From a virus (lineage: Duplodnaviria > Caudoviricetes), in the IMG/VR virus record IMGVR_UViG_3300028833_000071: a stretch of DNA of 64,000 bases; one strand, 5' to 3'. The translations under genes and the position numbers were made by a program. Of this stretch, positions 9,650-51,213 are shown in pieces. Below the pieces are notes generated by a model. The model was not told the origin of the DNA. It worked only from the letters and a program-made list of their open reading frames with translations, and searched no databases. Numbering within the stretch: position 1 is the first letter of the stretch; every line of letters starts with the position of its first letter.

Positions 9650-12244
9650 ATGAACAATAACAATGACCAAACATTTGACATTATGAATGATATTAATATG
9701 TCAAATGAACTTGAAGGACTTTTTAATTTCATTGTTGAAGATTTGTCAAAAGAATTGCCGACTTTAACAATAGATTTGAATTATTTTATGCTTGGCGCAT
9801 TAATTGAAAAGAACAACAACTTATATAAACGTCTTGAAATGTGTATGATGACAAGCACATTGGGCGCAATTTACAATAGTTTTTATCAGGTTGTAAGTTC
9901 TAAAGCATTAAGTGCGGTAAAGGCCAATAGAAAGGTAAGTTTTGATACCAAGGTGATTGAAACGTTTAAAAAGGCTGAAGAGATTGCAAAAGAATTGGAA
10001 AGCGAGGAAACAACCTCGGAACATGTGTTTCTTGCAATTTTAAACGATACTGATGATACAAATAAAATAAGAAAAGTATTTAATAAAGCTGGCTTGACTT
10101 ATGGCGTTTTCAAAGATAAACTTCAAGACAATCTTATTTCATTCAATGGAGATGGTGAAATGGAAAGTTCTGTCTTGGATGGAATGAGTGTTAAATTTAT
10201 TACGGCGAGAACACCGGAAGAGGCAATAAAGAAAATGAAAGACATGAAAGAAAAGGAAGAAGGAGAAATAAATTTGAATTCAGATTTAAAATTAAATAAG
10301 TCAAAAAAATCCAATTCCAAAACACCATATATTGACACATATTGTGTTGATTTAAATGCACTTGCTGAAAATGGTAAAATGGAACCAATAATAGGCCGTG
10401 AAAAAGAAATAACTGAAATTATTAGAATTCTTGGGCGAAAGAATAAGAACAATACAATTTTGGTCGGTGGAGAGGGTGTTGGTAAAACTGCTATTGGTGA
10501 AAATATAGCATATAAAATAGTAAACGGTGACGTGCCTGAATTTTTACTTAATAAAAGGCTCGTTTCACTTGATATGACAGCTATGATGGCAGGTACAACG
10601 CTTAGAGGTATGTTTGAAGAACGTGTTAAGGGCGTGATGGATGAAATAAAGAAGAATAAAAACTTTATCCTTTTCATGGATAATATAGGGGCAATTTTGG
10701 CTGATAAGGGGCGTAATGATTTCGAGTTTTCTTCCATGTTGTCACGAGGTCTCGAAACAGGCGATATTCAAGTAATTGGTACTTCTGATTTTGCTTCCTA
10801 TAGAAAAACATTTGATAAAGACCCAAGTTTGGCGAGACGTTTTCAAAAGATAATTGTCGAAGCACCTAATGTTGAAGAAACTGTTAAGATATTGAATGGT
10901 ATTAAATCTTCATATGAAGAGTATCATAAAGTTGAATATAATGAGGAGGTAATCAAGACATGCGTTAAACTTGCCGACAAATATATTTCAGAAAGAAATT
11001 TGCCTGATTCGGCTATTGATGTTTTGGATGAAATTGGTTCTTTAATTAGTACTTCTAATGAGCCCGAAATATTAAAGGAATTAAAGAAAGACATTAATAC
11101 TCTTGAAAATAAGTTAGAAGTCGCAAAAAGAGAAAAAGACTACGAAAATGTAGACGAAATATCAAAACAAATCATTTCATTAAAGCAGCAATATAATGAT
11201 GAAAAAGATGGTTATGAAAAAAATAGGACCGAAAATCACATACCTGTGACTGTTGATGATATACTTAATCTAATATCTACAAAAACAGGCATTCCAGTAA
11301 GTAATTTGAATTCTGATGATAAGAAAAAATTGTCAGGAATTAATGATAGGCTTAAGGAAAGTGTTATTGGACAAGATGAAGCAATTGATACTGTCTGTAA
11401 GGCATTGAAACGTAATAGAATTGGACTTAGCAATAACGGTTGTATGTATAGTTATATGGCAATCGGTAAAACAGGTACAGGTAAGACTTTATTGGCGAAA
11501 AAACTTGCTAAAGAACTCTTTGGTGACGAAAAGGCCCTTGTGAGGTTTGATATGTCTGAATATTCAGATAAGGTGTCAGTAAATAAACTCATTGGTTCAA
11601 ATCCTGGCTATGTTGGCTATGAAGAGGGTGGACAATTGACTGAAACCATTAAGAACAAGAAACATTGTGTTCTTTTGCTTGATGAAATTGAAAAAGCAGA
11701 CCCTGAGGTTTACAATATTTTCTTACAGGTTCTTGATGAAGGTTTCTTAACTGATAATTCAGGACAACGTGTGGATTTCAAGAATGTTATAGTTGTTTTT
11801 ACTTCTAATGTGGGTGCAAAGGCAGCTAGTGAATTTGGAAAAGGAATCGGTTTTGCTAACGATGAGGAAGAAAATACAAAGAGAATTCTATTGAAGCAAC
11901 TTAAAAACAGATTTCCACCTGAATTTTTAAATCGTATCAATGATGTTATCTATTTTAACACGTTGAATGACAATGACCTTAATTCAATTATTAAGATTGA
12001 AATCAATAAACTTGAAAACAGATTAAATGGAATGGGATATTCCATGGAATATGACAATGATGTTGTCCAATATATACTTAAAGAAATACAAGAGGAAAAA
12101 GATTTTGGTGCAAGGCCAATCATAAGATGTATCCAAGAGAATATAGAAGACAAATTAACCGACAAATTGCTTGAAAACGATTATGAAAAGGGGTATGTGT
12201 TTAAGGTTTCATGTCCCGCATTAAGTGTGGTAACTGTTGCATAA
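9650..12244 (+). CDS. clpC: ClpC/ClpA-like Hsp100 ATPase
   Basis: Clp N domain; two NBDs (GVGKT; GTGKT, LLLDEIEKA); GYVGYEEGG; IGF loop (KGIGF); FGARP. Confidence 0.9.
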   Translation: MNNNNDQTFDIMNDINMSNELEGLFNFIVEDLSKELPTLTIDLNYFMLGALIEKNNNLYKRLEMCMMTSTLGAIYNSFYQVVSSKALSAVKANRKVSFDTKVIETFKKAEEIAKELESEETTSEHVFLAILNDTDDTNKIRKVFNKAGLTYGVFKDKLQDNLISFNGDGEMESSVLDGMSVKFITARTPEEAIKKMKDMKEKEEGEINLNSDLKLNKSKKSNSKTPYIDTYCVDLNALAENGKMEPIIGREKEITEIIRILGRKNKNNTILVGGEGVGKTAIGENIAYKIVNGDVPEFLLNKRLVSLDMTAMMAGTTLRGMFEERVKGVMDEIKKNKNFILFMDNIGAILADKGRNDFEFSSMLSRGLETGDIQVIGTSDFASYRKTFDKDPSLARRFQKIIVEAPNVEETVKILNGIKSSYEEYHKVEYNEEVIKTCVKLADKYISERNLPDSAIDVLDEIGSLISTSNEPEILKELKKDINTLENKLEVAKREKDYENVDEISKQIISLKQQYNDEKDGYEKNRTENHIPVTVDDILNLISTKTGIPVSNLNSDDKKKLSGINDRLKESVIGQDEAIDTVCKALKRNRIGLSNNGCMYSYMAIGKTGTGKTLLAKKLAKELFGDEKALVRFDMSEYSDKVSVNKLIGSNPGYVGYEEGGQLTETIKNKKHCVLLLDEIEKADPEVYNIFLQVLDEGFLTDNSGQRVDFKNVIVVFTSNVGAKAASEFGKGIGFANDEEENTKRILLKQLKNRFPPEFLNRINDVIYFNTLNDNDLNSIIKIEINKLENRLNGMGYSMEYDNDVVQYILKEIQEEKDFGARPIIRCIQENIEDKLTDKLLENDYEKGYVFKVSCPALSVVTVA

Positions 12245-14454: not shown

Positions 14455-15186
14455 ATGAAATATCAAGGAAACAAGAATAGAATTGTTAATGACATTTTAC
14501 CAATTCTTTTAAAAAATCGAAAAGAAAATCAATGGTATGTTGAACCTTTTTGTGGCAGTTGTTCTGTCATACAGAATGTTGATGGAAATAGGCTTGCTTC
14601 TGATAAAAATAAGTATCTGATTGCGATGTGGAAATCATTGGTTGACGGAAAGAAAATGCCAACGAATATACCAAAGGAGTATTATGATGATGTTAGGGAT
14701 TGTTTTCATGGTAAAAATAATAATTATACTGATGATATAATTGGATGGGTTGGATATATGGCTTCTTTTAATGGTAGATTTTTTGATGGGGGATATTCAG
14801 GTCATAATGTTGTTGGTAAAAATGGTAAAACAAGGGATTATATTGCGGAGAATATTGCAAATACATTAAAACAACCTCAATATCTTAAAGATGTTGTATT
14901 TAATAGTGGTGATTATGATACAATTGAAATACCCGATAATTCGATAATATATTGTGACCCGCCGTATAAAAACACAAAACAATATCAATTTTCAAGAGAT
15001 TTTGACTATGATAAATTTTATTCATGGTTAATAGAAATGTTTAAAAAGGGCCATGAAGTATATATATCTGAGTATTCAATGCCGGATAATTTTGAGTGTA
15101 TTTGGTCAAAAGAAGTTACCAATGCTATGAATCCAACAATAACTAAGCAAACGGTTGAAAAATTATTTATACCTAAAGAGAAATAA
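14455..15186 (+). CDS. Dam-like (D12 class) DNA adenine methyltransferase
   Basis: KYQGNK, YVEPFCGS, IYCDPPY. Confidence 0.85.
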   Translation: MKYQGNKNRIVNDILPILLKNRKENQWYVEPFCGSCSVIQNVDGNRLASDKNKYLIAMWKSLVDGKKMPTNIPKEYYDDVRDCFHGKNNNYTDDIIGWVGYMASFNGRFFDGGYSGHNVVGKNGKTRDYIAENIANTLKQPQYLKDVVFNSGDYDTIEIPDNSIIYCDPPYKNTKQYQFSRDFDYDKFYSWLIEMFKKGHEVYISEYSMPDNFECIWSKEVTNAMNPTITKQTVEKLFIPKEK

Positions 15187-15188
15187 TT

Positions 15189-15803
15189 ATGGCACAAGAT
15201 TGGAATGGAAATAAAAACAGTATTTTTAAAACCTTAGGGGCTTCAAATCACACTGACAAAGAACGAGAAATTGATGATTTTTATGCAACGGACCCAATAG
15301 CAATAGATAAATTGTTGGCCGTTACCGAATTACCTAAAAACAAAATAATATGGGAGTGTAGCTGTGGGCAAGGGCATTTGTCCGAAAGGTTAATAGAGTA
15401 TGGTTATCAAGTAATGTCAAGTGATTTGATTGACAGAGGTTATGGCCAATCCGGAGTAGATTTTTTAAAGACATCATCAGGAAATTTTGAAAATATTTGC
15501 ATATTAACAAATCCACCATATAAATATCACAAGGAATTTATACGACATGCTTTGGATATATTGCCGGATAATACACCCGCAATATTTTTGTTAAAAACAA
15601 CTGCACTTGAAGGTAAGGGCCGTTATGAAGAATTTTATAAAAAAGGCTATCTTAAGTATATATATCAATTCTCAGAAAGACTTTTGTGTGCTAAAAACGC
15701 TAAGTTTGACGAGATGAAGGCGGGCGGTGGTTCAGCTGTCTCATATGCATGGTTTTGGTTTGAAAAAGGTAATAAAAATGATACCATAATAAAATGGATT
15801 TAA
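15189..15803 (+). CDS. DNA N6-adenine methyltransferase
   Basis: DFYAT, IWECSCGQGH, SSDL, LTNPPY. Confidence 0.85.
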   Translation: MAQDWNGNKNSIFKTLGASNHTDKEREIDDFYATDPIAIDKLLAVTELPKNKIIWECSCGQGHLSERLIEYGYQVMSSDLIDRGYGQSGVDFLKTSSGNFENICILTNPPYKYHKEFIRHALDILPDNTPAIFLLKTTALEGKGRYEEFYKKGYLKYIYQFSERLLCAKNAKFDEMKAGGGSAVSYAWFWFEKGNKNDTIIKWI

Positions 15804-17392
15804 TGGAAAAAGTTAACTTTAGTGAAGAGCAAAAGGCAATATTTGATTTTGCCGAACATGGTATTCCTAATATGATTGTTCAGGCGGTTGCAGGCGCAGG
15901 AAAAACGACAACCCTTGTTGAGTGTGCTAATAGGATAAAATCCTCCAAACGCATCATGTTATTGGCTCATAATAAGTCAACTAGGGATACATTGCGTCAA
16001 AAAATTGGTGATAAAAATAATATAAAAGTTTTTACAATCCATGGTTTGGCATACAGAATGTTTATGGAACATTTTGAATTTGAGCCCAATATAGACAATG
16101 ACAAGTACAGAAATTACATAAACAAGAATATTGATGTAATTGGAAGTGAAGACTATCATTCACTTTCGGGTAATGCCAAAATGATGTATAAGTCAAATGT
16201 TTTTGATTTGATAGACAAGGCTCGGCATAACTTGAAAAAATCGGAGCGTGAGTTAAAAAGACTTGCTGAAAAAAAGTATAATATGACTCTAATAGCAGAT
16301 GAATGCTCGTTTGTGAATAAGATACTTGAATGGGGTTATCAAACAACTGATATTGTCGATTTTCAAGATTTATTGTGGTATCCAAGCCAATATGCTTATT
16401 ATACTAAAAAGTACTTATCTGATATTATAATGCTTGATGAGGCACAAGATGCGTCATTGGCCCAACAAGATATTATAAGTCGATGTTTTAAAAGAGAAAC
16501 CAGAATGTTTTCGTTTGGTGATAAAAATCAGTCAATCAATTCTTGGTGTGGCTCGGATACAGAATCATTTGAGCATTTAAAGGATACAACTCAGTTTAGA
16601 CGAGAAGCTGTTGAATTTCCGTTAACAACCAATTATAGATGTGGTACTAAAATTATTGAATATGCTAAACAATATGTTAATAATAACATACAAGCAAGAG
16701 AGGGTGCGCCTGAAGGCGAGATAAATTTTGATGCGCATGTAAATGACATTAAAAATGGTGATATGGTTTTATGTCGAAATATATCTCCATTGATGGAATT
16801 TTATAGAATTGGTGTTTCACAGGGGAAAAAAATGCACTTTAAAGGAGAAGAACTTGGAAAATCTTTGATAACGGCAATTGATTGTTCTTATGGTAATACA
16901 CCAAAAGAAATAATTGACAGCCTTAAGCATAGACTTATTGCAACTTGGGATTTTCTTACGGAAGAGAGTGGACTTGATAAAAAAGAAACCATGACAAATT
17001 CTATGATAATTTCGTTACTTGATAATATAAAAACAATTGAGAATTTTCCTAAAACAGTTGAAACACGAAATGATATTGAAAAGTTTATAAAAGAGGTGTT
17101 TTCAAATGAAGAAGAAGACGGTGTTGAATTATCCACAATACATAGAGCAAAAGGTCTTGAATCTGATAATGTTTTTATTATTTGTCCTTCATTGATACCA
17201 AGTAGACTTGCAGAAACTGATTGGGAAATAGAGGAAGAAAGACATCTTCAATATGTTATGTGCACAAGAGCCAAAAATACGCTTAATTTTGTGAGTGAAA
17301 AAGAAATAAAGCCAAAAGAATATTTTTCTGAAAAGAATACACTATTTAAAGAATTAGAAAAAATACGAGAGGAAATAAATTATGTTGTATAG
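15794..17392 (+). CDS. UvrD/Rep superfamily 1 helicase
   Basis: AVAGAGKTT, LDEAQD, GDKNQSI, NYRC, STIHRAKGLE, YVMCTRAK. Confidence 0.9.
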   Translation: MDLMEKVNFSEEQKAIFDFAEHGIPNMIVQAVAGAGKTTTLVECANRIKSSKRIMLLAHNKSTRDTLRQKIGDKNNIKVFTIHGLAYRMFMEHFEFEPNIDNDKYRNYINKNIDVIGSEDYHSLSGNAKMMYKSNVFDLIDKARHNLKKSERELKRLAEKKYNMTLIADECSFVNKILEWGYQTTDIVDFQDLLWYPSQYAYYTKKYLSDIIMLDEAQDASLAQQDIISRCFKRETRMFSFGDKNQSINSWCGSDTESFEHLKDTTQFRREAVEFPLTTNYRCGTKIIEYAKQYVNNNIQAREGAPEGEINFDAHVNDIKNGDMVLCRNISPLMEFYRIGVSQGKKMHFKGEELGKSLITAIDCSYGNTPKEIIDSLKHRLIATWDFLTEESGLDKKETMTNSMIISLLDNIKTIENFPKTVETRNDIEKFIKEVFSNEEEDGVELSTIHRAKGLESDNVFIICPSLIPSRLAETDWEIEEERHLQYVMCTRAKNTLNFVSEKEIKPKEYFSEKNTLFKELEKIREEINYVV

Positions 17393-17612
17393 TAGAAGAG
17401 CTAGACGCCAAAAAAAGAGGGATTCTGATAACGATAGTCTCTTTTTTTATACGGATAATAGCGTGGCAAAAATCGGACCTGTTCCATATTGCAATGATTG
17501 GGACATGGGAAGAAATGGTGCTTCTTATTTAAATGAACAATTATACATTTATGATAATAACATTGTTAAACTTGAGACAGCAAGTAGTTTAATGTATCGT
17601 TATAAAATTTAA
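17382..17612 (+). CDS. Hypothetical protein
   Basis: ORF filling the operon gap. Confidence 0.45.
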   Translation: MLYSRRARRQKKRDSDNDSLFFYTDNSVAKIGPVPYCNDWDMGRNGASYLNEQLYIYDNNIVKLETASSLMYRYKI

Positions 17613-27921: not shown

Positions 27922-28890
27922 TTAGTGGTTCTCTTTTTTTGTTTTTAAATACAATAATAATTTGTTTTTATTAGTAAAATACTTTTCATCATCCACTTTT
28001 TCTTTAGTAAAATAAATTAATTCAACATTATTGTTTTCGCATAATTTTAATTTTTGTTTATCTCTTTCAATTTGTTTTTCAAATTCTTTTTCGTCACCAA
28101 ATAGTTTAACCGGTTGAAAATGTTGTTTTCCTTGACATTCAATGGCGATGTTATAATCAGGTAGATAAAAATCTATAAATTGATGACATAAAGTCAAATT
28201 ATTAATTAACCATTCAAAAGTTTTTTGTCTTTCAAAATTTATATTATTTTCTTTTAAAAAATTGTTAATTTCAGATTCTAAATGTGATTCTTTACATTGA
28301 GGACAACCTGATTTTGAAGTTAAATGATGGTCAGGTCTAACCCAAAAGTTTCCATGTTTTGGGCAGATTACGCAAACTTTTGTGTCACAATTAATATACT
28401 TAACTTTTGAATAATCATATACATTACCATGAATATTAACTGCTTTTTTTATAAATTCTTCAGTATTACTTCTTTGTGAGTTTCCTCGTTTATTATCATA
28501 GCATTTAATACAGCCACCACCTCTTAAATGATTATTTGGTGTTTGCCAGAATTCACCATGTTTAGGACATATAATACAAACTTTTGTCTGTGCATTCACA
28601 TATTCTACCTTGGAATAATCATATTTATCTCTATGAACTCTTTTCGCTTTTTCTACAAAATCTTTAGTAGAAGATAATTTTTCTTTTGATAAATTTTGAT
28701 AATGGCACTTTTTACAGTTGCATCCCTCTAAATGAGAACCTGGTTCTTGCCAAAATTCACCGTGTTCAGGACAAATTATACAAACTTTTGTATGGTTATT
28801 AACATATTCCACCTTGGAATAATCATATTTATTACCATGGATTTTTCTTGCTTTTTCAATAAATTCTTCTGTTGTTAAATTTTTAGACAT
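27922..28890 (-). CDS. Putative homing endonuclease (three YDYSKVEY...CPxHG repeats + PD-(D/E)XK/Vsr-like nuclease)
   Basis: Repeats HGNKYDYSKVEYVN..TKVCIICPEHGEFWQ; IDFYLPDYNIAIECQGKQH; late motif at 28905-28912. Confidence 0.8.
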   Translation of the reverse strand: MSKNLTTEEFIEKARKIHGNKYDYSKVEYVNNHTKVCIICPEHGEFWQEPGSHLEGCNCKKCHYQNLSKEKLSSTKDFVEKAKRVHRDKYDYSKVEYVNAQTKVCIICPKHGEFWQTPNNHLRGGGCIKCYDNKRGNSQRSNTEEFIKKAVNIHGNVYDYSKVKYINCDTKVCVICPKHGNFWVRPDHHLTSKSGCPQCKESHLESEINNFLKENNINFERQKTFEWLINNLTLCHQFIDFYLPDYNIAIECQGKQHFQPVKLFGDEKEFEKQIERDKQKLKLCENNNVELIYFTKEKVDDEKYFTNKNKLLLYLKTKKENH

Positions 28891-29902: not shown

Positions 29903-30064
29903 ATGGCAAAGAAAACACAAACTTCATCATTTGGCGTTTCTGAAAAAGTAAATCATAATTCAGAAAGATTTTATAATTCAAAATTATATGAAGATATAAA
30001 GTTAAATAATATAGTAGAAATAGCAAATAATAGAATTTTAAACATAACAAATTATGAAAAATAA
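29903..30064 (+). pseudogene. Short ORF resembling the N-terminus of an N4/N6 DNA methyltransferase (remnant)
   Basis: MAKKTQTSSFGVSEKVNHNSERFYNSKLYE, stopping after 53 aa; recognised from memory only. Confidence 0.4.
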
Positions 30065-30833
30065 AACAAATAAGGAAAAAGAAACTGTTAATGTTAAATT
30101 AGGCCATGAATATGTTGACCTTGGATTGCCAAGTGGTACATTGTGGGCCAAATGCAATATTGGTGCCAATTCACCTGAAGATTTCGGTGATTATTTTGCT
30201 TGGGGAGAAGTTAATGGTTACAAGTACGAGAATGAGCAATTTGTACTTGATGTAACTGGTAACCAAGAAGATGCTGTCACTTATGACAAAACAGTAAACG
30301 GATTCAGTTGGGAAAGTGGAACCAACACATACAAATTCGGTTCTTATGATGGTAAAGCATCTCCAGACTATGGTATGACAAAATACAATAAAACCGATGG
30401 CAAGACAGTTCTTGACCTTGAGGATGATGCTGCTTATGTCAATTGGGGAGAAAATTGGAGGATGCCCACAGTTGAAGAGATAAGTGAATTGATAGATTCA
30501 AAGAATACCAGTCATGAATTTACTTCAATGAATAATGTACAGGGTATATTGTTTACATCATTGTCCAATGGTAATACGTTGTTTGTCCCTTCTGCTGGTA
30601 GCGCTTGCGGTACTTCAGTCAATTACATTGGTGACTACGGTTACTGTTGGTCTGGTTTGCTGTATAGTGAGAATGTCTACAATGCGCGGCATTTGAGTTT
30701 CATTAGGGACAGGGATGATGTCTACGTCGACAACTACTACCGGTACAACGGGTTCTCTGTGCGCCCTGTATATAAAGATAAAATTCAAATTGTTGATGGT
30801 TTTAATCAATATGTAATTAATTTTCCCGAATAA
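30054..30833 (+). CDS. CLec-fold (DUF1566/Fib_succ_major-like) protein; DGR-target paralogue
   Basis: HEYVDLGLPSGTLWA...WRMPT...GFSVRPV; 30408-30769 is near-identical to 43164-43522. Confidence 0.8.
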   Translation: MKNKTNKEKETVNVKLGHEYVDLGLPSGTLWAKCNIGANSPEDFGDYFAWGEVNGYKYENEQFVLDVTGNQEDAVTYDKTVNGFSWESGTNTYKFGSYDGKASPDYGMTKYNKTDGKTVLDLEDDAAYVNWGENWRMPTVEEISELIDSKNTSHEFTSMNNVQGILFTSLSNGNTLFVPSAGSACGTSVNYIGDYGYCWSGLLYSENVYNARHLSFIRDRDDVYVDNYYRYNGFSVRPVYKDKIQIVDGFNQYVINFPE

Positions 30834-35490: not shown

Positions 35491-38103
35491 TTAAGGTACT
35501 AAATCTGCTGGTGTCCATTTCTTTATTATACCATTTCTATCTTTGCCAACATGTGTCTCGTATTCTTGGTTGGTGTTAGTAATTAATATATTGGTATAAT
35601 TATTGTAATCACCTTTAACACTTTCTTCGATTATACAATTCTTAATGACATTATTTGAAGAGGTAACTTGTGATGATGTTAACTTTACACATTCAACGCC
35701 ATTTTTAAATTCACAATAATGTACATGGCCTATAAGATGTTCTGTATCGGAACCGAATATAATGTTTTTGGAATTAATGCCAAATATATTAGAACAACAA
35801 TCTTCACCTAAATTTATATCAGATGCATTAGTATTAAATATATTATAATTACAATCATTTTTTAAATTAATACCGTTAGAACCAATTTTTAATGTATTAC
35901 TATAACAATTGTAGCCAAAAGTATTAAAATGGCAATTATTTTCTAAAATATTAGAAAAACAATATCCATCAAATGTATTATTAATACAATCACAACCTAA
36001 GCAATTACTGGTAAAAACATCCTGTGTATTATTATCATGACAATAATCTCTAAATTTATTAGACGCACAATAAGCACCAAATACATTCGTATTACAATTA
36101 TTGACAAATTCATTAGAATAAAATTCAATATTTGCAACAATATTATAACAATTAATACCAAATATATTTGAAATACATCCAGGTAAAAATGTCATTGAGT
36201 GGCAATTAGAATTAAACATATTGGAATAACAATAATGTGTAATACCTTCATTTTCATCATATGACAAAACGATGTTGTTAAGTATTTGTTCACGATAATA
36301 ACTACCTACCTGATTATTTTTTCTTAATGGCAATATTATATTATCATAACAATATTTAGTAAATTGTCCGTTTGAATTATTATCAATATTATTTAATGAG
36401 CCATCTATTATATCTGTTTTTTTAATATATGTAAATGTATAATAATAAGCAGAAGCACCATTATAATGATAAACCTCACCACCCAGACCCTCATGCGGAA
36501 AATGCGCATTATCAATATCCGGATTTAAGAAACCCGCATATGTATCTTTTAAACTCATTACACCTGTGGTTCCACTAATTACATTATCTATATAATAACG
36601 TTTAAACATTATATTTTTAAAATCATAAGGGGCTTTGTTACCAAATTCATCCTCCATTTCATATATAACACCTTTACCGTTAACTTCATCGGCCCATTTA
36701 AACCTATTGATGTTATTATCTAAGCAATATTTTAATTTCCATACATTAAGATTATTATAACCAAAATAAGGAGGTTTATTTTTACTTTCACTATCTTCAT
36801 GCATAATAGCACCTGCATTTTCAGATAATGTTTTCTCGTCAATTGCAAAAACAATCACATCAAAATCGTGCCCTGCTGATTGTGTATCAGTTTGTGTCGT
36901 AGTACATGTATAGTCTGTAATACGATAAAAATGGCCTGGGTTAAGATGTTCAGCATCTCGTAAATCTTTTAACTCTGAATAGGTTAATGGTATCATGGCC
37001 GAAGGTAAATCAATAATAATATTACCAGCTGTCGGTTTTAAAACAGTGCCACGATTTACATCATTAACAATCACATCACCTGTTGGTATGTTTATATTGT
37101 TTTGTGATGGGGAATAAAAAGGTGTAGAAAGGTTAATTGCTGTTGGACCACCCACAGTCAAAAAACTTGTTTCACCATCAAATGAACCTGTAGGGCCTTG
37201 TGGTCCTGTAGGCCCGACATTTCCATCTAATCCGTCTCGGCCATCTTTTCCTGTAGGACCTTGAGGACCTTGTTCACCTTGAGCACCGGTAGGACCTTGT
37301 GCACCTGTTTCGCCTGTTGGACCTTTAGGGCCCTGTATAGGACCGACATTTGTCCATAGATTATTGTTAAAAACATATAAATCACCATTTATAAGATAAC
37401 CATCACCTGGATGTGGGTCTACAATATCCTCCAAATCACTTTCATCTTCTAATGTTCCTTGTATTACAACACTTGTTCCATCATTGCCCTGTGGACCTGT
37501 GGGACCTTGTGGACCGACTGAACCTGTGGGACCTTGTGGACCTGTTAAACCCATACCTTGTGGACCTGTGGGACCTATTGGGCCATTTAAACCTGTTGGA
37601 CCGACGGCACCTGTAGGACCTTCAGGACCGATTTCACCTGTGGGGCCGATTTCGCCTGTTTTACCTGTAGGACCTTGTGGGCCAATTAAACCTGTAGGAC
37701 CGATGGCACCTGTAGGACCCATAGGGCCATCTTCTCCTTGTGCACCATCATCACCTTTTAACCCTTTAGGACCTGTAGGACCTATTGGACCAATTAAACC
37801 TGTAGGGCCAATTTCACCTGTTGGGCCTTGTGCACCTGTAGGACCTTGAGGGCCTTGTTCACCTTGAGCACCTGTAGGACCGACCATACTTGAACCATCG
37901 GCACCATCTTTACCCTTTGGACCTGTTGGACCTGTTGGACCCACCTCACCTTTAGGACCTGATTTACCCATACATCCCTTTGGACCTTGTAAACCTTGCT
38001 CTCCTTGTGGACCTGTAGGACCAGTAGAACCATTTTTACCTGGAGCACCTTGGCATCCTCTTGGACCTGTTGGACCTATCATATAAATTACTTCGTTTTC
38101 CAT
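35491..38103 (-). CDS. Collagen-like fibre protein with Asn/Cys-rich C-terminal beta-solenoid-like repeats
   Basis: Long G-P-T/G-x-y tracts; [12 protein letters not shown] spacer; NxFGxNCxxN repeats. Confidence 0.8.
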
Positions 38104-42586: not shown

Positions 42587-42611
42587 GACAATTATATACC
42601 AGTTAACACAA
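42587..42611 (+). repeat. 25-bp dispersed element (copies at 3772-3796 -, 43685-43709 -, 43737-43761 -, 47619-47643 +)
   Basis: Consensus GRSAAYTATATACYnnnTRRCACAA. Confidence 0.8.
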
Positions 42612-42676
42612 ATACACAATTAGTCCTTAAATGTAAAAGTAATTTTTAAAATTGGAATTTGTTTTCAAGTCTCTAA

Positions 42677-42684
42677 CTATTTAT
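42677..42684 (+). promoter_or_regulatory. Putative late promoter CTATTTAT (representative of about 17 sites)
   Basis: + strand: 18317, 42677, 48238, 49634, 58057; - strand: 1134, 3724, 6757, 8395, 8733, 12574, 14268, 26063, 28905, 38442, 39133 (variant at 29830); each about 15-45 nt before a start codon. Confidence 0.75.
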
Positions 42685-42707: not shown

Positions 42708-43541
42708 ATGAATAAAAACATGGCAAGAAACAACCAAAAACTTATCAACTTCCACACAAGCGGCAATACAGAAGTGCCGTTGGAATCATTGTTCTACGGC
42801 GAAATCGCCGTAAGACACTGTTCAGGCGATTCAGCCGCTGAACTTATTATCAAAAACTCGGAAAACACAAGCGCTGTTTTCGTTGAAACGGCAAAAATGT
42901 GCATCGACTGCGGAACTTGGGACGGCGGAGATTCACACGAATATGTTGACCTTGGATTACCATCTGGCACTCTTTGGGCAACCTGCAATATAGGTGCTAA
43001 CTTACCTGAAGAGTTTGGCTTGTATTTCCAATGGGGTGACACTCAAGGATATACCTCTGCACAGGTAGGTACTGACAAGGTATTTAGTTGGGCTAATTAC
43101 AAATACAGCAGCGCTGGTAGTAGTTCTGTGATGACCAAATACAACTCAAGTGACGGCAAAACTGTTCTTGACCTTGAGGATGATGCTGCTTATGTCAATT
43201 GGGGAGAAAATTGGAGGATGCCCACAGTTGACCAGATAAGTGAATTGATAGATTCAGAGAATACCAGTCATGAATTTACTTCAATGAATAATGTAGAGGG
43301 TATATTGTTTACATCATTGTCCAATGGTAATACGTTGTTTGTCCCTTCTGCTGGTCTCGCTTACGGTACTTCAGTCGATGGCATTGGTGAGGTCGGTGGC
43401 TGTTGGTCTTTACTGAATAGTGAGTATGTCGGCTATGCGCAGGAATTGTATTTCAATTGGATGGAGGATGATGTCTACGTCTACAACTACGAACGGTACT
43501 ACGGGTTCTCTGTGCGTCCTGTGCGTGTTCAGAACCAATAA
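42708..43541 (+). CDS. DGR target protein, Mtd-like receptor-binding protein with CLec fold
   Basis: N-terminal LFYGEIAV...IDCGTW fibre-type motifs; YVDLGLPSGTLWA; variable C-terminus ending GFSVRPV; downstream hairpin. Confidence 0.8.
   Translation: MNKNMARNNQKLINFHTSGNTEVPLESLFYGEIAVRHCSGDSAAELIIKNSENTSAVFVETAKMCIDCGTWDGGDSHEYVDLGLPSGTLWATCNIGANLPEEFGLYFQWGDTQGYTSAQVGTDKVFSWANYKYSSAGSSSVMTKYNSSDGKTVLDLEDDAAYVNWGENWRMPTVDQISELIDSENTSHEFTSMNNVEGILFTSLSNGNTLFVPSAGLAYGTSVDGIGEVGGCWSLLNSEYVGYAQELYFNWMEDDVYVYNYERYYGFSVRPVRVQNQ
43356..43530 (+). repeat. Putative DGR variable region (VR); sister region at 30600-30769
   Basis: Mismatches to the sister copy concentrate at positions 1-2 of NNC/NNT codons. 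Confidence 0.75.
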
Positions 43542-43557
43542 AAACAAACAAAAGAAC

Positions 43558-43603
43558 AACACATCCTGTTCTGTTCCACAAGAACAGGCAAACAGGATGT
43601 GTT
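43558..43603 (+). other. Hairpin/cruciform downstream of the VR (DGR target-recognition element and/or terminator)
   Basis: aacacatcctgtt-ctgttc-cacaa-gaacag-gca-aacaggatgtgtt. Confidence 0.65.
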
Positions 43604-43788
43604 TTTCAAAAAGATAGAATGCTCAGTTTTTTTCACTAAAAATCAAAAAATTAGGCGATTTTCAGGGGAAAACCGCCAAAATTTTTGTGCTAACTAGTAT
43701 ATAATTGCCAAAAAAAGAACGCATTTTATGCGTTCCTTGTGCCATCAGGTATATAGTTCCCTTATTTTAACCATAGTAGCAGTTATGG

Positions 43789-48261: not shown

Positions 48262-49401
48262 ATGATTGCAGCGAACATAATAAGTGGCATACTACAACGA
48301 TACAAACAAATATGCGCCAAATACCCGCAATCCCCTTCGTTTATACCCAATACCAATGGTGACTCGTTTTATCTTGTAAGAGAAAGAGATGGGAATCGCC
48401 CTGTTCAAGTTCGTATTTCCAATCATGGCACATATCTTAGCAAATGGTGTGATAGGGAAGAATTGGGGAATAGTGTTGAAAGACTTGACCCTGCATTATG
48501 TGACAACATATCAATTGCTTTTATTGACGATGGTAATGATATAACCAAGGATTGCAAGGGAAGACAAGATTGTGAAGACTGCAATATTCAACCTTGCATA
48601 CCACAAACATTCGATGGACAGAATGAGTTGGGAAAACCGTTTAAAGTTATACAATACACCTATAAAAGCAGTCAAATTTCACCAAGGTATATCAACGGGC
48701 TTACCAAAGCTATTGCAGAAGCAAGTGTAAGCGGAAAGTATAACGACCCGTTGGCTAATCTTGTGAAAGCTGCAAAGAAAAAACCACTTTCATCATCAGA
48801 AAATAACCAAGAAATAAAAGAGAATAAGAATAATAAATACAAGAAAATGAATAAGAAACAAGTAATTAGAATTAATGAAAATCAACTCAAACAGATAATA
48901 ATGGAATCTGTGAAAAATGTTATAAAAGAAACCAAGTTCCAAAGAGGATATTATAACATTACGGATGACATGTCTTTTAGAGACATACAAGACAGAATGC
49001 GCTATTTTGGTATAGAAGGTGGAAGAATGGCAGAACCTAATTATCTACCGAAACAATGGATTAAGAAACGTCTACGCCCTAAGGATACAGAATATGTATA
49101 TAATGTTGAAAATCTAATTGATAAGCCAAATATTGTGTCAGTTCTTGACACTGGTACTGATACTTTTTTTGGTGTTGATAAAGACGGTAATATTTATGGT
49201 AATGGGAATCCTGATGAATGTATTGGTAATTTGAACACTGATAAGATATATGGAACAGGATGTTTTGGTGATTATTGTTGGTTGATAGTGTATAAAGATG
49301 AAAAACAAGCTTTGTTTGATTACAGAGGAATTATATGTTACGGTAAAGTGATTCAATTAGATAACGGAACGTATTTCTTTGCAACTAAGCAGCGCACTTA
49401 A
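48262..49401 (+). CDS. Two-module late protein with internal tag (MNKKQVIRINENQLKQIIMESVKNVIKE); C-terminus probably altered by the IS1595 remnant
   Basis: N-domain with VRISNH motif; tag at 48847; stop codon lies inside the GC-richer IS sequence. Confidence 0.65.
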   Translation: MIAANIISGILQRYKQICAKYPQSPSFIPNTNGDSFYLVRERDGNRPVQVRISNHGTYLSKWCDREELGNSVERLDPALCDNISIAFIDDGNDITKDCKGRQDCEDCNIQPCIPQTFDGQNELGKPFKVIQYTYKSSQISPRYINGLTKAIAEASVSGKYNDPLANLVKAAKKKPLSSSENNQEIKENKNNKYKKMNKKQVIRINENQLKQIIMESVKNVIKETKFQRGYYNITDDMSFRDIQDRMRYFGIEGGRMAEPNYLPKQWIKKRLRPKDTEYVYNVENLIDKPNIVSVLDTGTDTFFGVDKDGNIYGNGNPDECIGNLNTDKIYGTGCFGDYCWLIVYKDEKQALFDYRGIICYGKVIQLDNGTYFFATKQRT

Positions 49402-49606
49402 CGGTTTTCACGTCCTCAAACGTCACCACATTAAGGGCTCGTTCCATAAGGACGGCAAATCTTTCACCACCCTTTAATCCACGGTTGTTGTACCTGAAGA
49501 CGGCTTCGTCAACATAACGCTGCATGTACTTGCGTGAAACGTAGTGGTATGTCCCGTACACCATACGCTTGAACTGTCCCCAAAAGCCTTCAATCGTGGG
49601 AGTATG
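49385..49606 (-). pseudogene. IS1595-family (ISXO2-like) transposase C-terminal fragment
   Basis: Translates as HTPTIEGFWGQFKRMVYGTYHYVSRKYMQRYVDEAVFRYNNR...KCAA*; higher GC than flanks; no start codon. Confidence 0.85.
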
Positions 49607-49656
49607 TCAGAAAAAAAAAGTACAAAGAAACAACTATTTATAATAAAAATTAATAT

Positions 49657-51213
49657 ATGGGCAAATATAATTCATATTTAGATGTTGAGCCTCAAATAGA
49701 AAATACCAAGGACGGTACTAAGAAAAAGATTAATTTTTGGGGTATTAAAGATAGACAAGACGCAGAAAATATATTAGATGCAATTACTGAACCTGGCGAT
49801 AGTACATTTGCAAGAAAAGGTTTACCTGGTAAAAATATTTTAAGAGCATGGTATACGCCTTCAAGAACTAATATGGGCCTTTTTGTGGTTGTTGCAAATG
49901 AAGCAGTTGAAGATTTTATAAATACAGGCTTAAGAAGCATAATATTTTCATTGCTTAAAAGTAATAATTATGATAAAGAAAAAATAGCAAATCTTGAGCA
50001 TGAAGTTGCACATAAGTTGGAAACAAGTGATAGTTGGGCTGATAAAAGGAAAGCATTGGCAGACGCTGATGTTCATGTTGCTGACCTTTGGCAACGATAT
50101 TTAAATAACATAAATGACCCTGTTACAAGAGAAGCCCTTAAACTATATTCTCAAATTTATACAACAACATCATATGGCCATGCTTTAAGTTTGGCTAATG
50201 TTATGCGTATTAGGGCTATTAACCCCGATGCAACATTTGTACTTTCAGAAACAGTATGGAATTCGTGGGGCTATGGCATTAAAAGAGGTGCTAAAAAATA
50301 TCCTTTATGGGCTGTTCGTTTTACACAAGGAATATCAAAAAAGGATTTGGAAAATGCAAAAGCAAAACTTGGCCATGAACTTGAACAATTAGGTGATTTA
50401 GGCGTTGCTGTTCAAGAAGCAATCCGTATTGAAGCAGAAAAAGAGGCTAATAAAGGTTTGAAACCTATGTTTATACTATATTATGGTTATGATATTGCAG
50501 ATACATATCAATATAATTCCAAAGAGGTAAGTCCTTTGATGTCAAAACCGAATATTTCAAGTAATGTTGTATATAAGTTAAATGCTTTGGCACAAAAACT
50601 TGAAGATGAGAAGGAAAAAGGCTTAGGCGAAAAAGAAAAAGAAATAAGGGATACAACTGACATGAAATATAATGTTGCTTCTGAAACAATGATAAATTTA
50701 TGCGAAAAAAACGGTATTAAAACAGAAGATATAGTTAACAATAGTACCTCTAACCAAAAAAAATTAATAAATTTATTAGATGCCTATTATAATTATATAA
50801 TAAATGCATCTTCAAATAAAAAGAGCCCGAATAAAATCAATGTTTTAAAACCTGAAAATATTCAAAATTATATTCAAGATGCAATTCAATTAACATTATT
50901 AATGAATAGCATTCCATTTAACAAGAATGATTTTACACATTCGGAAATATATAATCAAAACGAAGCGGCAACACTCGGCCCAATTATTAGAACAGCAGCT
51001 GAAGCGATTGGTAAAGCATTGAACCCTAAACAAAAAGATAATGTTAATGAGGGTATTTTTGAAGAAGGTGCATTTGGTTTATCATTTGACGAAGCATTGA
51101 AAAAACTTGGTATTAAAGTAGTTTCCGACAATACGCCTGAAATGCAAATGGAGGCAATCAAAGAGAATTTCAATAAAATGTTAAATAGAATTAATAATCC
51201 TATAATTTATTGA
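49657..51213 (+). CDS. Late protein with ArdC-N-like ssDNA-binding domain
   Basis: SLANVMRIRAINPDATFV....WNSWGYGIKRGAK...YDIADT; C-terminal IKENFNKMLNRI peptide; CTATTTAT at 49634. Confidence 0.65.
   Translation: MGKYNSYLDVEPQIENTKDGTKKKINFWGIKDRQDAENILDAITEPGDSTFARKGLPGKNILRAWYTPSRTNMGLFVVVANEAVEDFINTGLRSIIFSLLKSNNYDKEKIANLEHEVAHKLETSDSWADKRKALADADVHVADLWQRYLNNINDPVTREALKLYSQIYTTTSYGHALSLANVMRIRAINPDATFVLSETVWNSWGYGIKRGAKKYPLWAVRFTQGISKKDLENAKAKLGHELEQLGDLGVAVQEAIRIEAEKEANKGLKPMFILYYGYDIADTYQYNSKEVSPLMSKPNISSNVVYKLNALAQKLEDEKEKGLGEKEKEIRDTTDMKYNVASETMINLCEKNGIKTEDIVNNSTSNQKKLINLLDAYYNYIINASSNKKSPNKINVLKPENIQNYIQDAIQLTLLMNSIPFNKNDFTHSEIYNQNEAATLGPIIRTAAEAIGKALNPKQKDNVNEGIFEEGAFGLSFDEALKKLGIKVVSDNTPEMQMEAIKENFNKMLNRINNPIIY

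Follow-up and report, generated by a model that had tools for sequence, protein, structure and literature searches.

Two lectin-fold genes of a large phage carry C-terminal variable regions with a DGR-type signature

We analysed a window of 64,000 nucleotides from a large gut or rumen phage, bases 18118-82117 of a 147,462-bp IMG/VR record with a GC content of 31.7%. CheckV rates the record as about 41% complete, placing the genome near 360 kb and leaving about 59% of it unsampled. The only GenBank phages with a homologue of the gene described here, even a distant one, are the Prevotella Lak megaphages. No tRNA genes were found in the window. Gene B, its surroundings, and its paralogue A are laid out as follows, in window coordinates:

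42589-42612, plus strand: left arm of an inverted pair, 24 nt, a dispersed element bracketing gene B
42676-42684, plus strand: promoter-like motif ACTATTTAT, 24 nt upstream of the start codon of B
42708-43541, plus strand: gene B, 277 aa, with an N-terminal module (residues 1-75) and a C-type-lectin-like domain (about 75-277), from the ORF list and AlphaFold2
43164-43522, plus strand: shared block in B, 359 nt, recent, with its partner at 30408-30769
43353-43502, plus strand: variable region of B, residues 217-265 of 277, with 34 differences from A
43503-43536, plus strand: GC-richer 3' tail, conserved at the nucleotide level in B, C and D; candidate IMH
43558-43606, plus strand: stem-loop (hairpin proper 43558-43601) and then TTTTT, resembling an intrinsic terminator
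43684-43707, minus strand: right arm of the inverted pair, 92% complementary to the left arm
30054-30833, plus strand: gene A, 259 aa, a paralogue with a short N-terminus and the same lectin-like domain
30408-30769, plus strand: shared block in A, 362 nt, recent
30597-30749, plus strand: variable region of A, carrying an extra GGT codon at 30654-30656

The C-terminal extension of A is 21 codons long and differs from the end of B. Beyond the window, the contig has a third paralogue, C (contig 101552-102376), and an orthologue of B, which we call D, is found in another record (L006:10001-10835; G003 48954-49766). An HNH or homing endonuclease gene occupies 27922-28890 (minus strand), just upstream of the neighbourhood of A, and a collagen-like tail-fibre gene of 870 aa lies between A and B at 35491-38103 (minus strand).

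The first-pass annotation noted that DGRs act on C-termini of the C-type-lectin kind, and the structural model of B has that fold. AlphaFold2 modelled B with a pLDDT of 83.7 overall and above 90 over residues 75-277, with low confidence for residues 1-75. VIA-align matched the model to CLec folds only: the Legionella Lcl C-terminal domain (8q4e, Z 7.1, 16% identity), Mtd (1yu0, 6.8), TvpA (2y3c, 6.5) and TaqVP (5vf4, 6.3); Z values of 6.3-7.2 are middling, and three solved DGR variable proteins stand among the top 11 structural matches. The variable codons of B fall in C-terminal strands and loops. Foldseek of the model against the PDB gave nothing useful, and a profile search of PDB sequences gave noise only. 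Scores for Lcl_C (PF07603) were 21.1 bits for A, 17.4 for B and 18.9 for C, below the gathering cut-off of 34.9, and the FISUMP score of A was likewise sub-cut-off at 15.4 bits; PF07603 is carried by many of the database homologues. These scores, together with the homologues and the structural match to Lcl, point to A and B as distant relatives of the Lcl_C/DUF1566 fold rather than scored members. Neither protein matches a tail or virion family in PHROG or Pfam, so a role in receptor binding would be one read from the fold.

We compared 30408-30769 with 43164-43522 using a MAFFT alignment and codon tables. The two blocks differ by 38 mismatches and one 3-nt indel, distributed exactly as the first-pass annotation had counted them: four mismatches in the first 192 nt (30476, 30477, 30501 and 30540), all amino-acid-changing, and then 34 mismatches plus the indel in the last ~170 nt, where GGT at 30654-30656 of A is missing from B. 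All 38 mismatches divide 20/11/7 over codon positions 1/2/3. The codon tables also reproduced the earlier counts for the last 170 nt, in which 28 mismatches lie at positions 1-2 and only TTG/TTA and CGC/CGT are synonymous. Between A and B, dN is 0.28 and dS 0.08 in the variable part, dN is 0.029 and dS 0 in the block's 5' part, and dS reaches 2.2 in the part of the domain that flanks the block (0.53 for the B versus C flank). A dS of 2.2 upstream of 30408/43164 marks the two genes as old paralogues, and the block accordingly stands out as a discrete module that came to be shared recently. The pattern is unique to A/B among pairs of A, B, C and D, all others having dS > dN in every segment.

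The changes are also clustered within codons. Of 25 codons that vary between A and B, 11 are hit more than once, a number reached in 0.04-0.06% of 5000 simulations with the 34 changes placed randomly (P ~0.0005), and in about 0.05% even when changes were restricted to non-synonymous ones. Transversions (25) outnumber transitions (13). C-ending codons make up 43-57% of the variable regions against 24% genome-wide; we rejected this bias as a diagnostic because the upstream domain is likewise elevated.

We then inferred a template by setting every A/B differing site to A. The result holds 56 adenines, or about 61 when hidden double hits are allowed for, with 38% of them changed in A and 43% in B, and replacements of G 21, T 18 and C 6. 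For bRT-Avd, misincorporation is 51.6%, and among sense-strand replacements C is the rarest (PMC7826257); the Bordetella enzyme miscopies about half of template adenines and inserts bases in the order A > C > G (PMC6182149, PMC7826257). Invariant sites are poor in A within the variable region (22/136, against 54/185 in the adjoining block; P = 0.008). Among the 34 differing pairs, 23 include A, where about half would be expected if change were base-unbiased and about 80% for a DGR with ~40% mutation; 11 pairs have no A at all, where independence would predict 7.4. Real DGRs are documented to show indels in multiples of 3 nt and some changes at bases other than adenine (PMC5758913). The adenine-mutagenesis signature that the first-pass annotation named is borne out in its quantitative properties: the fraction changed, the rarity of C and the A-poor invariant sites are all consistent with it. 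Neither A nor B can have served as the other's template, with adenine at 15 of the 38 mismatches in A and 10 in B, and paralogue C was rejected as a template as well, being coding and diverged at all codon positions.

One further protein, P0006, has the A/B scaffold, the only one among 5.8 billion proteins searched. It is encoded on a 1,733-bp JGI contig and differs from B at seven codons, six of which are also variable in the A/B comparison; changes at inferred template adenines would suffice to produce all seven differences. P0006 and B have 18 of the 25 variable codons in common and lie in different gene contexts; they are too alike for a full homing event to separate them.

The same signature recurs beyond this phage. 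The family has ~6,800 homologues; we compared 134 distinct homologue domains from the loci retrieved, and many close pairs repeated the A/B-type pattern. In a group of five sequences (L033, L034, L035, L044 and L047), variation at third positions touches 8 of 57 codons in the variable region (14%) against 68 of 133 in the scaffold (51%; P = 9e-7), while positions 1-2 show the inverse, at 45% variable against 15%. A is present in 49 of the 51 variable columns at positions 1-2, including 27/27 at position 2; C accounts for 4-5% of bases in those columns, the scaffold being C-rich; and of 59 columns without A in any sequence, two vary. A group of three IMG/VR sequences (L011, L013 and L024) has A in 36 of 43 variable columns and C at 2%, and between L013 and L024 third positions vary at 2/61 variable-region codons against 24/137 elsewhere (P = 0.005). 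Selection at the protein level cannot explain why synonymous sites are more conserved inside the hypervariable segment, and the inversion between third positions and positions 1-2 argues for repeated overwriting from a conserved template. Across many genomes, then, the C-terminus of the family behaves like a DGR-type variable region, and it does so at the position found in A and B. This signature, a new result here, is stronger in the other homologue groups than in A/B itself.

Four rumen metagenome contigs (L030, L040, L046 and L075) carry tandem arrays of 3-5 paralogues with variable-region-type C-termini on a similar scaffold; neither RT nor template was found in up to 20 kb around these arrays. 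An Asn-rich window in L035 was considered as a template and rejected, as it is an internal part of an ordinary conserved gene.

The two halves of the shared block have different histories. Its 5' half has 4 variable against 54 invariant A, and its 3' half 34 against 22 (Fisher P = 5e-10). The 54 adenines kept in the first 192 nt speak for ordinary gene conversion rather than mutagenic homing, and with only four changes there we rejected the whole 362-nt block as a single retrohomed unit. The first half of the domain in B and its last 30 nt track the C/D lineage and only the 359-nt block tracks A; B is therefore a chimera, with flanks like C and D and a block like A. The block edges coincide with the two most conserved motifs of the family. 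Chimerism of this kind is also seen between L044 and L045, which have 32 differences in the first 197 nt and then an identical last 394 nt. The N-terminal 82 codons of B (42708-42953) differ from those of D (L006:10001-10246) by no non-synonymous and three third-position changes, in a record (G003) that otherwise shares almost no DNA with the window's genome, which points to a recent horizontal transfer of this N-terminal module between distinct phages. D has TAG in place of CAG of B four codons before the shared stop, and a paralogue in G005 also has one in-frame TAG; these could be early stops or TAG-to-Gln recoding in those phages.

Downstream of the variable region, the GC-rich tail (43503-43536) and hairpin (43558-43601) described in the first-pass annotation are both present, and they fare differently as DGR elements. 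The first 14 nt of the tail (43503-43516) are common to A and B, and the remainder is identical in B and C and differs by one base in D, though synonymous sites among B, C and D are saturated elsewhere. On this conservation the tail could be an IMH for B. A and B have only 14-20 nt in common past the last variable site, which makes a common IMH doubtful for A; A may be a frozen copy, sharing just that first stretch of the tail. The hairpin after B folds as RNA at -28.3 kcal/mol (z = -4.5) with a U-run behind it; A and C have no comparable structure downstream. It is best read as an ordinary intrinsic terminator, and the suggestion that it is a DGR cruciform is not borne out. Inverted repeats occur in only 34% of DGRs (PMC5758913).

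Upstream of B, the motif ACTATTTAT occurs 13 times in the window against 1.9 expected, a count reached in 0/100 shuffles. Copies usually lie just upstream of co-oriented genes; there is one before B and none before A. This distribution suggests a phage promoter motif. The late-expressed receptor-binding protein suggested by the first-pass annotation would draw its support from this enriched upstream motif, A and B matching no tail or virion family. The 24-nt element of the inverted pair has further copies at contig 11673, 21888 and 90740, and a perfect copy at G003 48864, which lies some 90 nt upstream of orthologue D. The element may serve as a regulatory site, or it may mark where a small mobile cassette ends.

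We searched for the parts that define a DGR. The first-pass annotation had reported no RT or TR nearby, and this holds across the whole record: there is no RVT_1 match in 147,462 bp, by the same profile search that does detect the RT of another homologue-bearing record (L008), and four RT/Avd protein probes from BPP-1 and L008 had no match in the 147 kb. BLAST with the inferred template found no template-like third copy in the 147-kb record. Five exact template patterns with the adenine sites left free had no match in IMG/VR, metagenome contigs or GTDB genomes, shorter variable-region fragments gave none either, and a scan for AAY-rich windows matched only the template of L008. Across the ~120 homologue loci, an RT or Avd was found in L008 only, where the DGR is aimed at another gene.

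G001 (401 kb, rated 100% complete) holds a member of the three-sequence group with a variable-region-type gene and has neither RT nor template. As evidence on an RT in this phage, the six records G001-G006 are mostly uninformative: the DNA that G003 and G005 have in common with the window's genome is this gene only, and the single terminase-level relative is 12% complete. Searches of the available sequence did not turn up the defining parts, so membership of a DGR cannot be claimed. Of the multi-target, trans-acting DGR that the first-pass annotation proposed, the signature and the fold are borne out, but RT, Avd and TR are missing from the 147 kb and from the collections searched. The same annotation held that a lack of TR and RT in phage or host would speak against its proposal; such a lack is found in the 147 kb, and with about 59% of the genome unsampled it is neither established nor excluded for the phage as a whole.

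We suggest that the variable regions of A and B arose by DGR-type mutagenic retrohoming with RT, Avd and template outside the sampled 147 kb, a reading to which we give about an even chance. The mutational signature is real, and the fold and the recombination mosaic were likewise observed; template, enzyme, IMH, present-day activity and a part in binding would follow from the proposed reading. Reverse transcription of an RNA copy of an invariant template repeat would place random bases opposite its adenines, and the resulting cDNA would overwrite the 3' end of the lectin-fold gene (43353-43502 in B, 30597-30749 in A), re-randomising about 25 surface codons and resetting the other bases. The template would be ~170 nt long and contain roughly 56-61 adenines, the majority at codon positions 1-2. 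Ordinary homologous recombination would have copied the 362-nt C-terminal module between A and B ahead of the latest round of diversification, with crossovers at the two most conserved motifs of the family. RT, Avd and template would lie in the missing ~59% of the ~360-kb genome or be supplied from outside the phage; if resident, they would be separated from A by over 48 kb in one direction and from B by over 86 kb in the opposite one.

The variable regions could instead be relics or imports, made by a DGR in a related phage, a Bacteroidales host or an ancestor and brought into A and B by recombination of modules, with no DGR acting in this phage now. We consider this possible, if rather unlikely. 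Modules of the family clearly move by recombination: the 5' part of the shared block came without adenine mutagenesis, L044 and L045 are identical over their last 394 nt after 32 differences in the first 197 nt, the variable regions of B and P0006 are nearly identical in different gene contexts, and gene B is common to the otherwise unrelated G003. G001, rated complete, lacks an RT, and the exact proteins recur unchanged: A is identical on 6 contigs, B on 3 and C on 5 (JGI and ENA sources, the longest contig being 163,973 bp), with no sign of ongoing diversification. Weighing against import, both copies sit in one genome with a block dS of ~0-0.08, so that sister alleles would have had to be imported on two separate occasions; the collections searched yielded neither a donor template nor a close allele, P0006 being the only candidate among 5.8 billion proteins; and the unsampled 59% leaves ample room for a resident DGR.

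A history with no retroelement at all seems improbable to us. It would require point mutation under very strong diversifying selection on a ligand-binding face, or an RT-free templated mechanism of a kind not yet known, acting after gene conversion between the paralogues. The searches that returned no RT or template anywhere, including in the relative rated complete, fit it, as does the resemblance of B versus P0006 to stepwise change; the rarity of C could stem from selection in favour of typical binding-site residues (Tyr, Gly, Asp, Asn and Ser), and the 23 of 34 differing pairs with A fall between the half expected of base-unbiased change and the ~80% expected of a DGR. It accounts poorly for 11 multi-hit codons on a background of ~3% divergence (P ~0.0005), for a transition:transversion ratio of 1:1.9, atypical for recent point mutation, for third positions that vary far less in the variable region than they do in the scaffold (P = 9e-7), and for columns without A that almost never vary (2/59 in the five-sequence group). 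That assembly created the shared block, by a chimeric join or by collapsing a repeat, has almost no chance of being right: the contig is metagenome-derived and ~360-nt repeats can mislead assemblers, but the recurrence of the exact A, B and C proteins on 6, 3 and 5 contigs from two sources means that the pattern is not an assembly artefact of one record, A and B are intact ORFs with different flanks, and the architecture recurs in unrelated contigs.

The consequences differ with where the machinery lies. If RT and template are in the unsampled part of the genome, this would be a phage DGR with at least two targets tens of kilobases away, a remote multi-target configuration that surveys report almost only for non-phage DGRs, and it would show that in jumbo phages the diversification of binding proteins can be dispersed and multi-target. 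The RT-less relative and the ~120 RT-less homologue loci hint at a true absence of both parts; in that case phages would exploit the retroelement of a host or neighbour, or diversified binding modules would circulate by recombination; either would bear on the evolution of phage host range in gut ecosystems. More speculatively, and with doubts of our own, we raise the idea that large phages of gut and rumen Bacteroidales have a widespread lectin-fold family, often in arrays, with templated, adenine-type C-terminal hypermutation and no RT or template in cis, not even in a ~400-kb genome rated complete, the machinery coming from the host, a co-resident element or an undescribed mechanism. Programs that detect DGRs by way of the RT will miss such RT-less variable regions. 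A test on the variable region alone can find them: compared with the remainder of the gene, third positions are more conserved there and positions 1-2 less so.

Among known systems, the DGR of BPP-1 (Mtd, Avd, TR, Brt) resembles A/B in that its target is a phage protein of lectin fold, Mtd (Z 6.8), which varies at the C-terminus, in changing about half of the template adenines and in having C as the rarest replacement. Its parts are packed into 3 kb, with a defined IMH of 34 bp and a GC-rich cruciform; for A/B the cassette parts are missing and the downstream hairpin is terminator-like. The Treponema denticola DGR offers a precedent for remote targets, since one template is thought to serve up to seven of them in trans, and the fold of its TvpA (2y3c) matches the B model (Z 6.5); there, RT and template are known and the variable regions match the template at non-adenine sites, in contrast to A/B, which have neither to show. 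Phage DGR targets are nearly always <50 kb from the RT, and distances >100 kb were seen only in non-phage DGRs (PMC5758913), and two jumbo-phage papers do not mention DGRs; compared with other remote-target DGRs, the nearest possible RT for A/B would be >48 kb off and is unobserved.

A complete and apparently unannotated DGR that we found in L008 (IMGVR_UViG_3300031992_000136) is a further comparison and serves as a positive control. Its parts span about 3 kb (L008:14503-17513), all on the minus strand:

14503-15735, minus strand: RT (RVT_1)
15806-15893, minus strand: TR
16093-16485, minus strand: bAvd
16557-17513, minus strand: target gene, with its VR at 16593-16680

All 16 TR/VR mismatches lie at template adenines, and 43% of the 37 adenines are changed (T 7, G 6, C 3). 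Unlike A/B, this system has every DGR part in place, and the A/B-type homologue of the same record (9902-10585) is not its target; like A/B, it comes from the same kind of environment, its target matches Lcl_C weakly, and its mutated fraction and spectrum are similar. A second variable-region-like stretch lies near 17668 of L008.

A further parallel is with DGR class 'd'/CLec2 (DUF1566, DUF823, Fib_succ_major; Legionella LdtA; Wu et al. 2017, PMC5758913), the C-termini of DUF1566/Fib_succ_major proteins being an established class of DGR target (PMC5758913). A/B differ from this class in having no adjacent RT, Avd or template, in Pfam and NCBIfam matches that stay sub-cut-off, and in being carried by a ~360-kb phage rather than a bacterial chromosome. 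In both, a C-terminal lectin-like domain is the variable part, matches to Lcl_C and FISUMP are weak and mixed, codon variation is of the NNC/NAT kind, and the variable region ends just before a conserved G-x-S-V-R-x-V type motif and a GC-richer tail.
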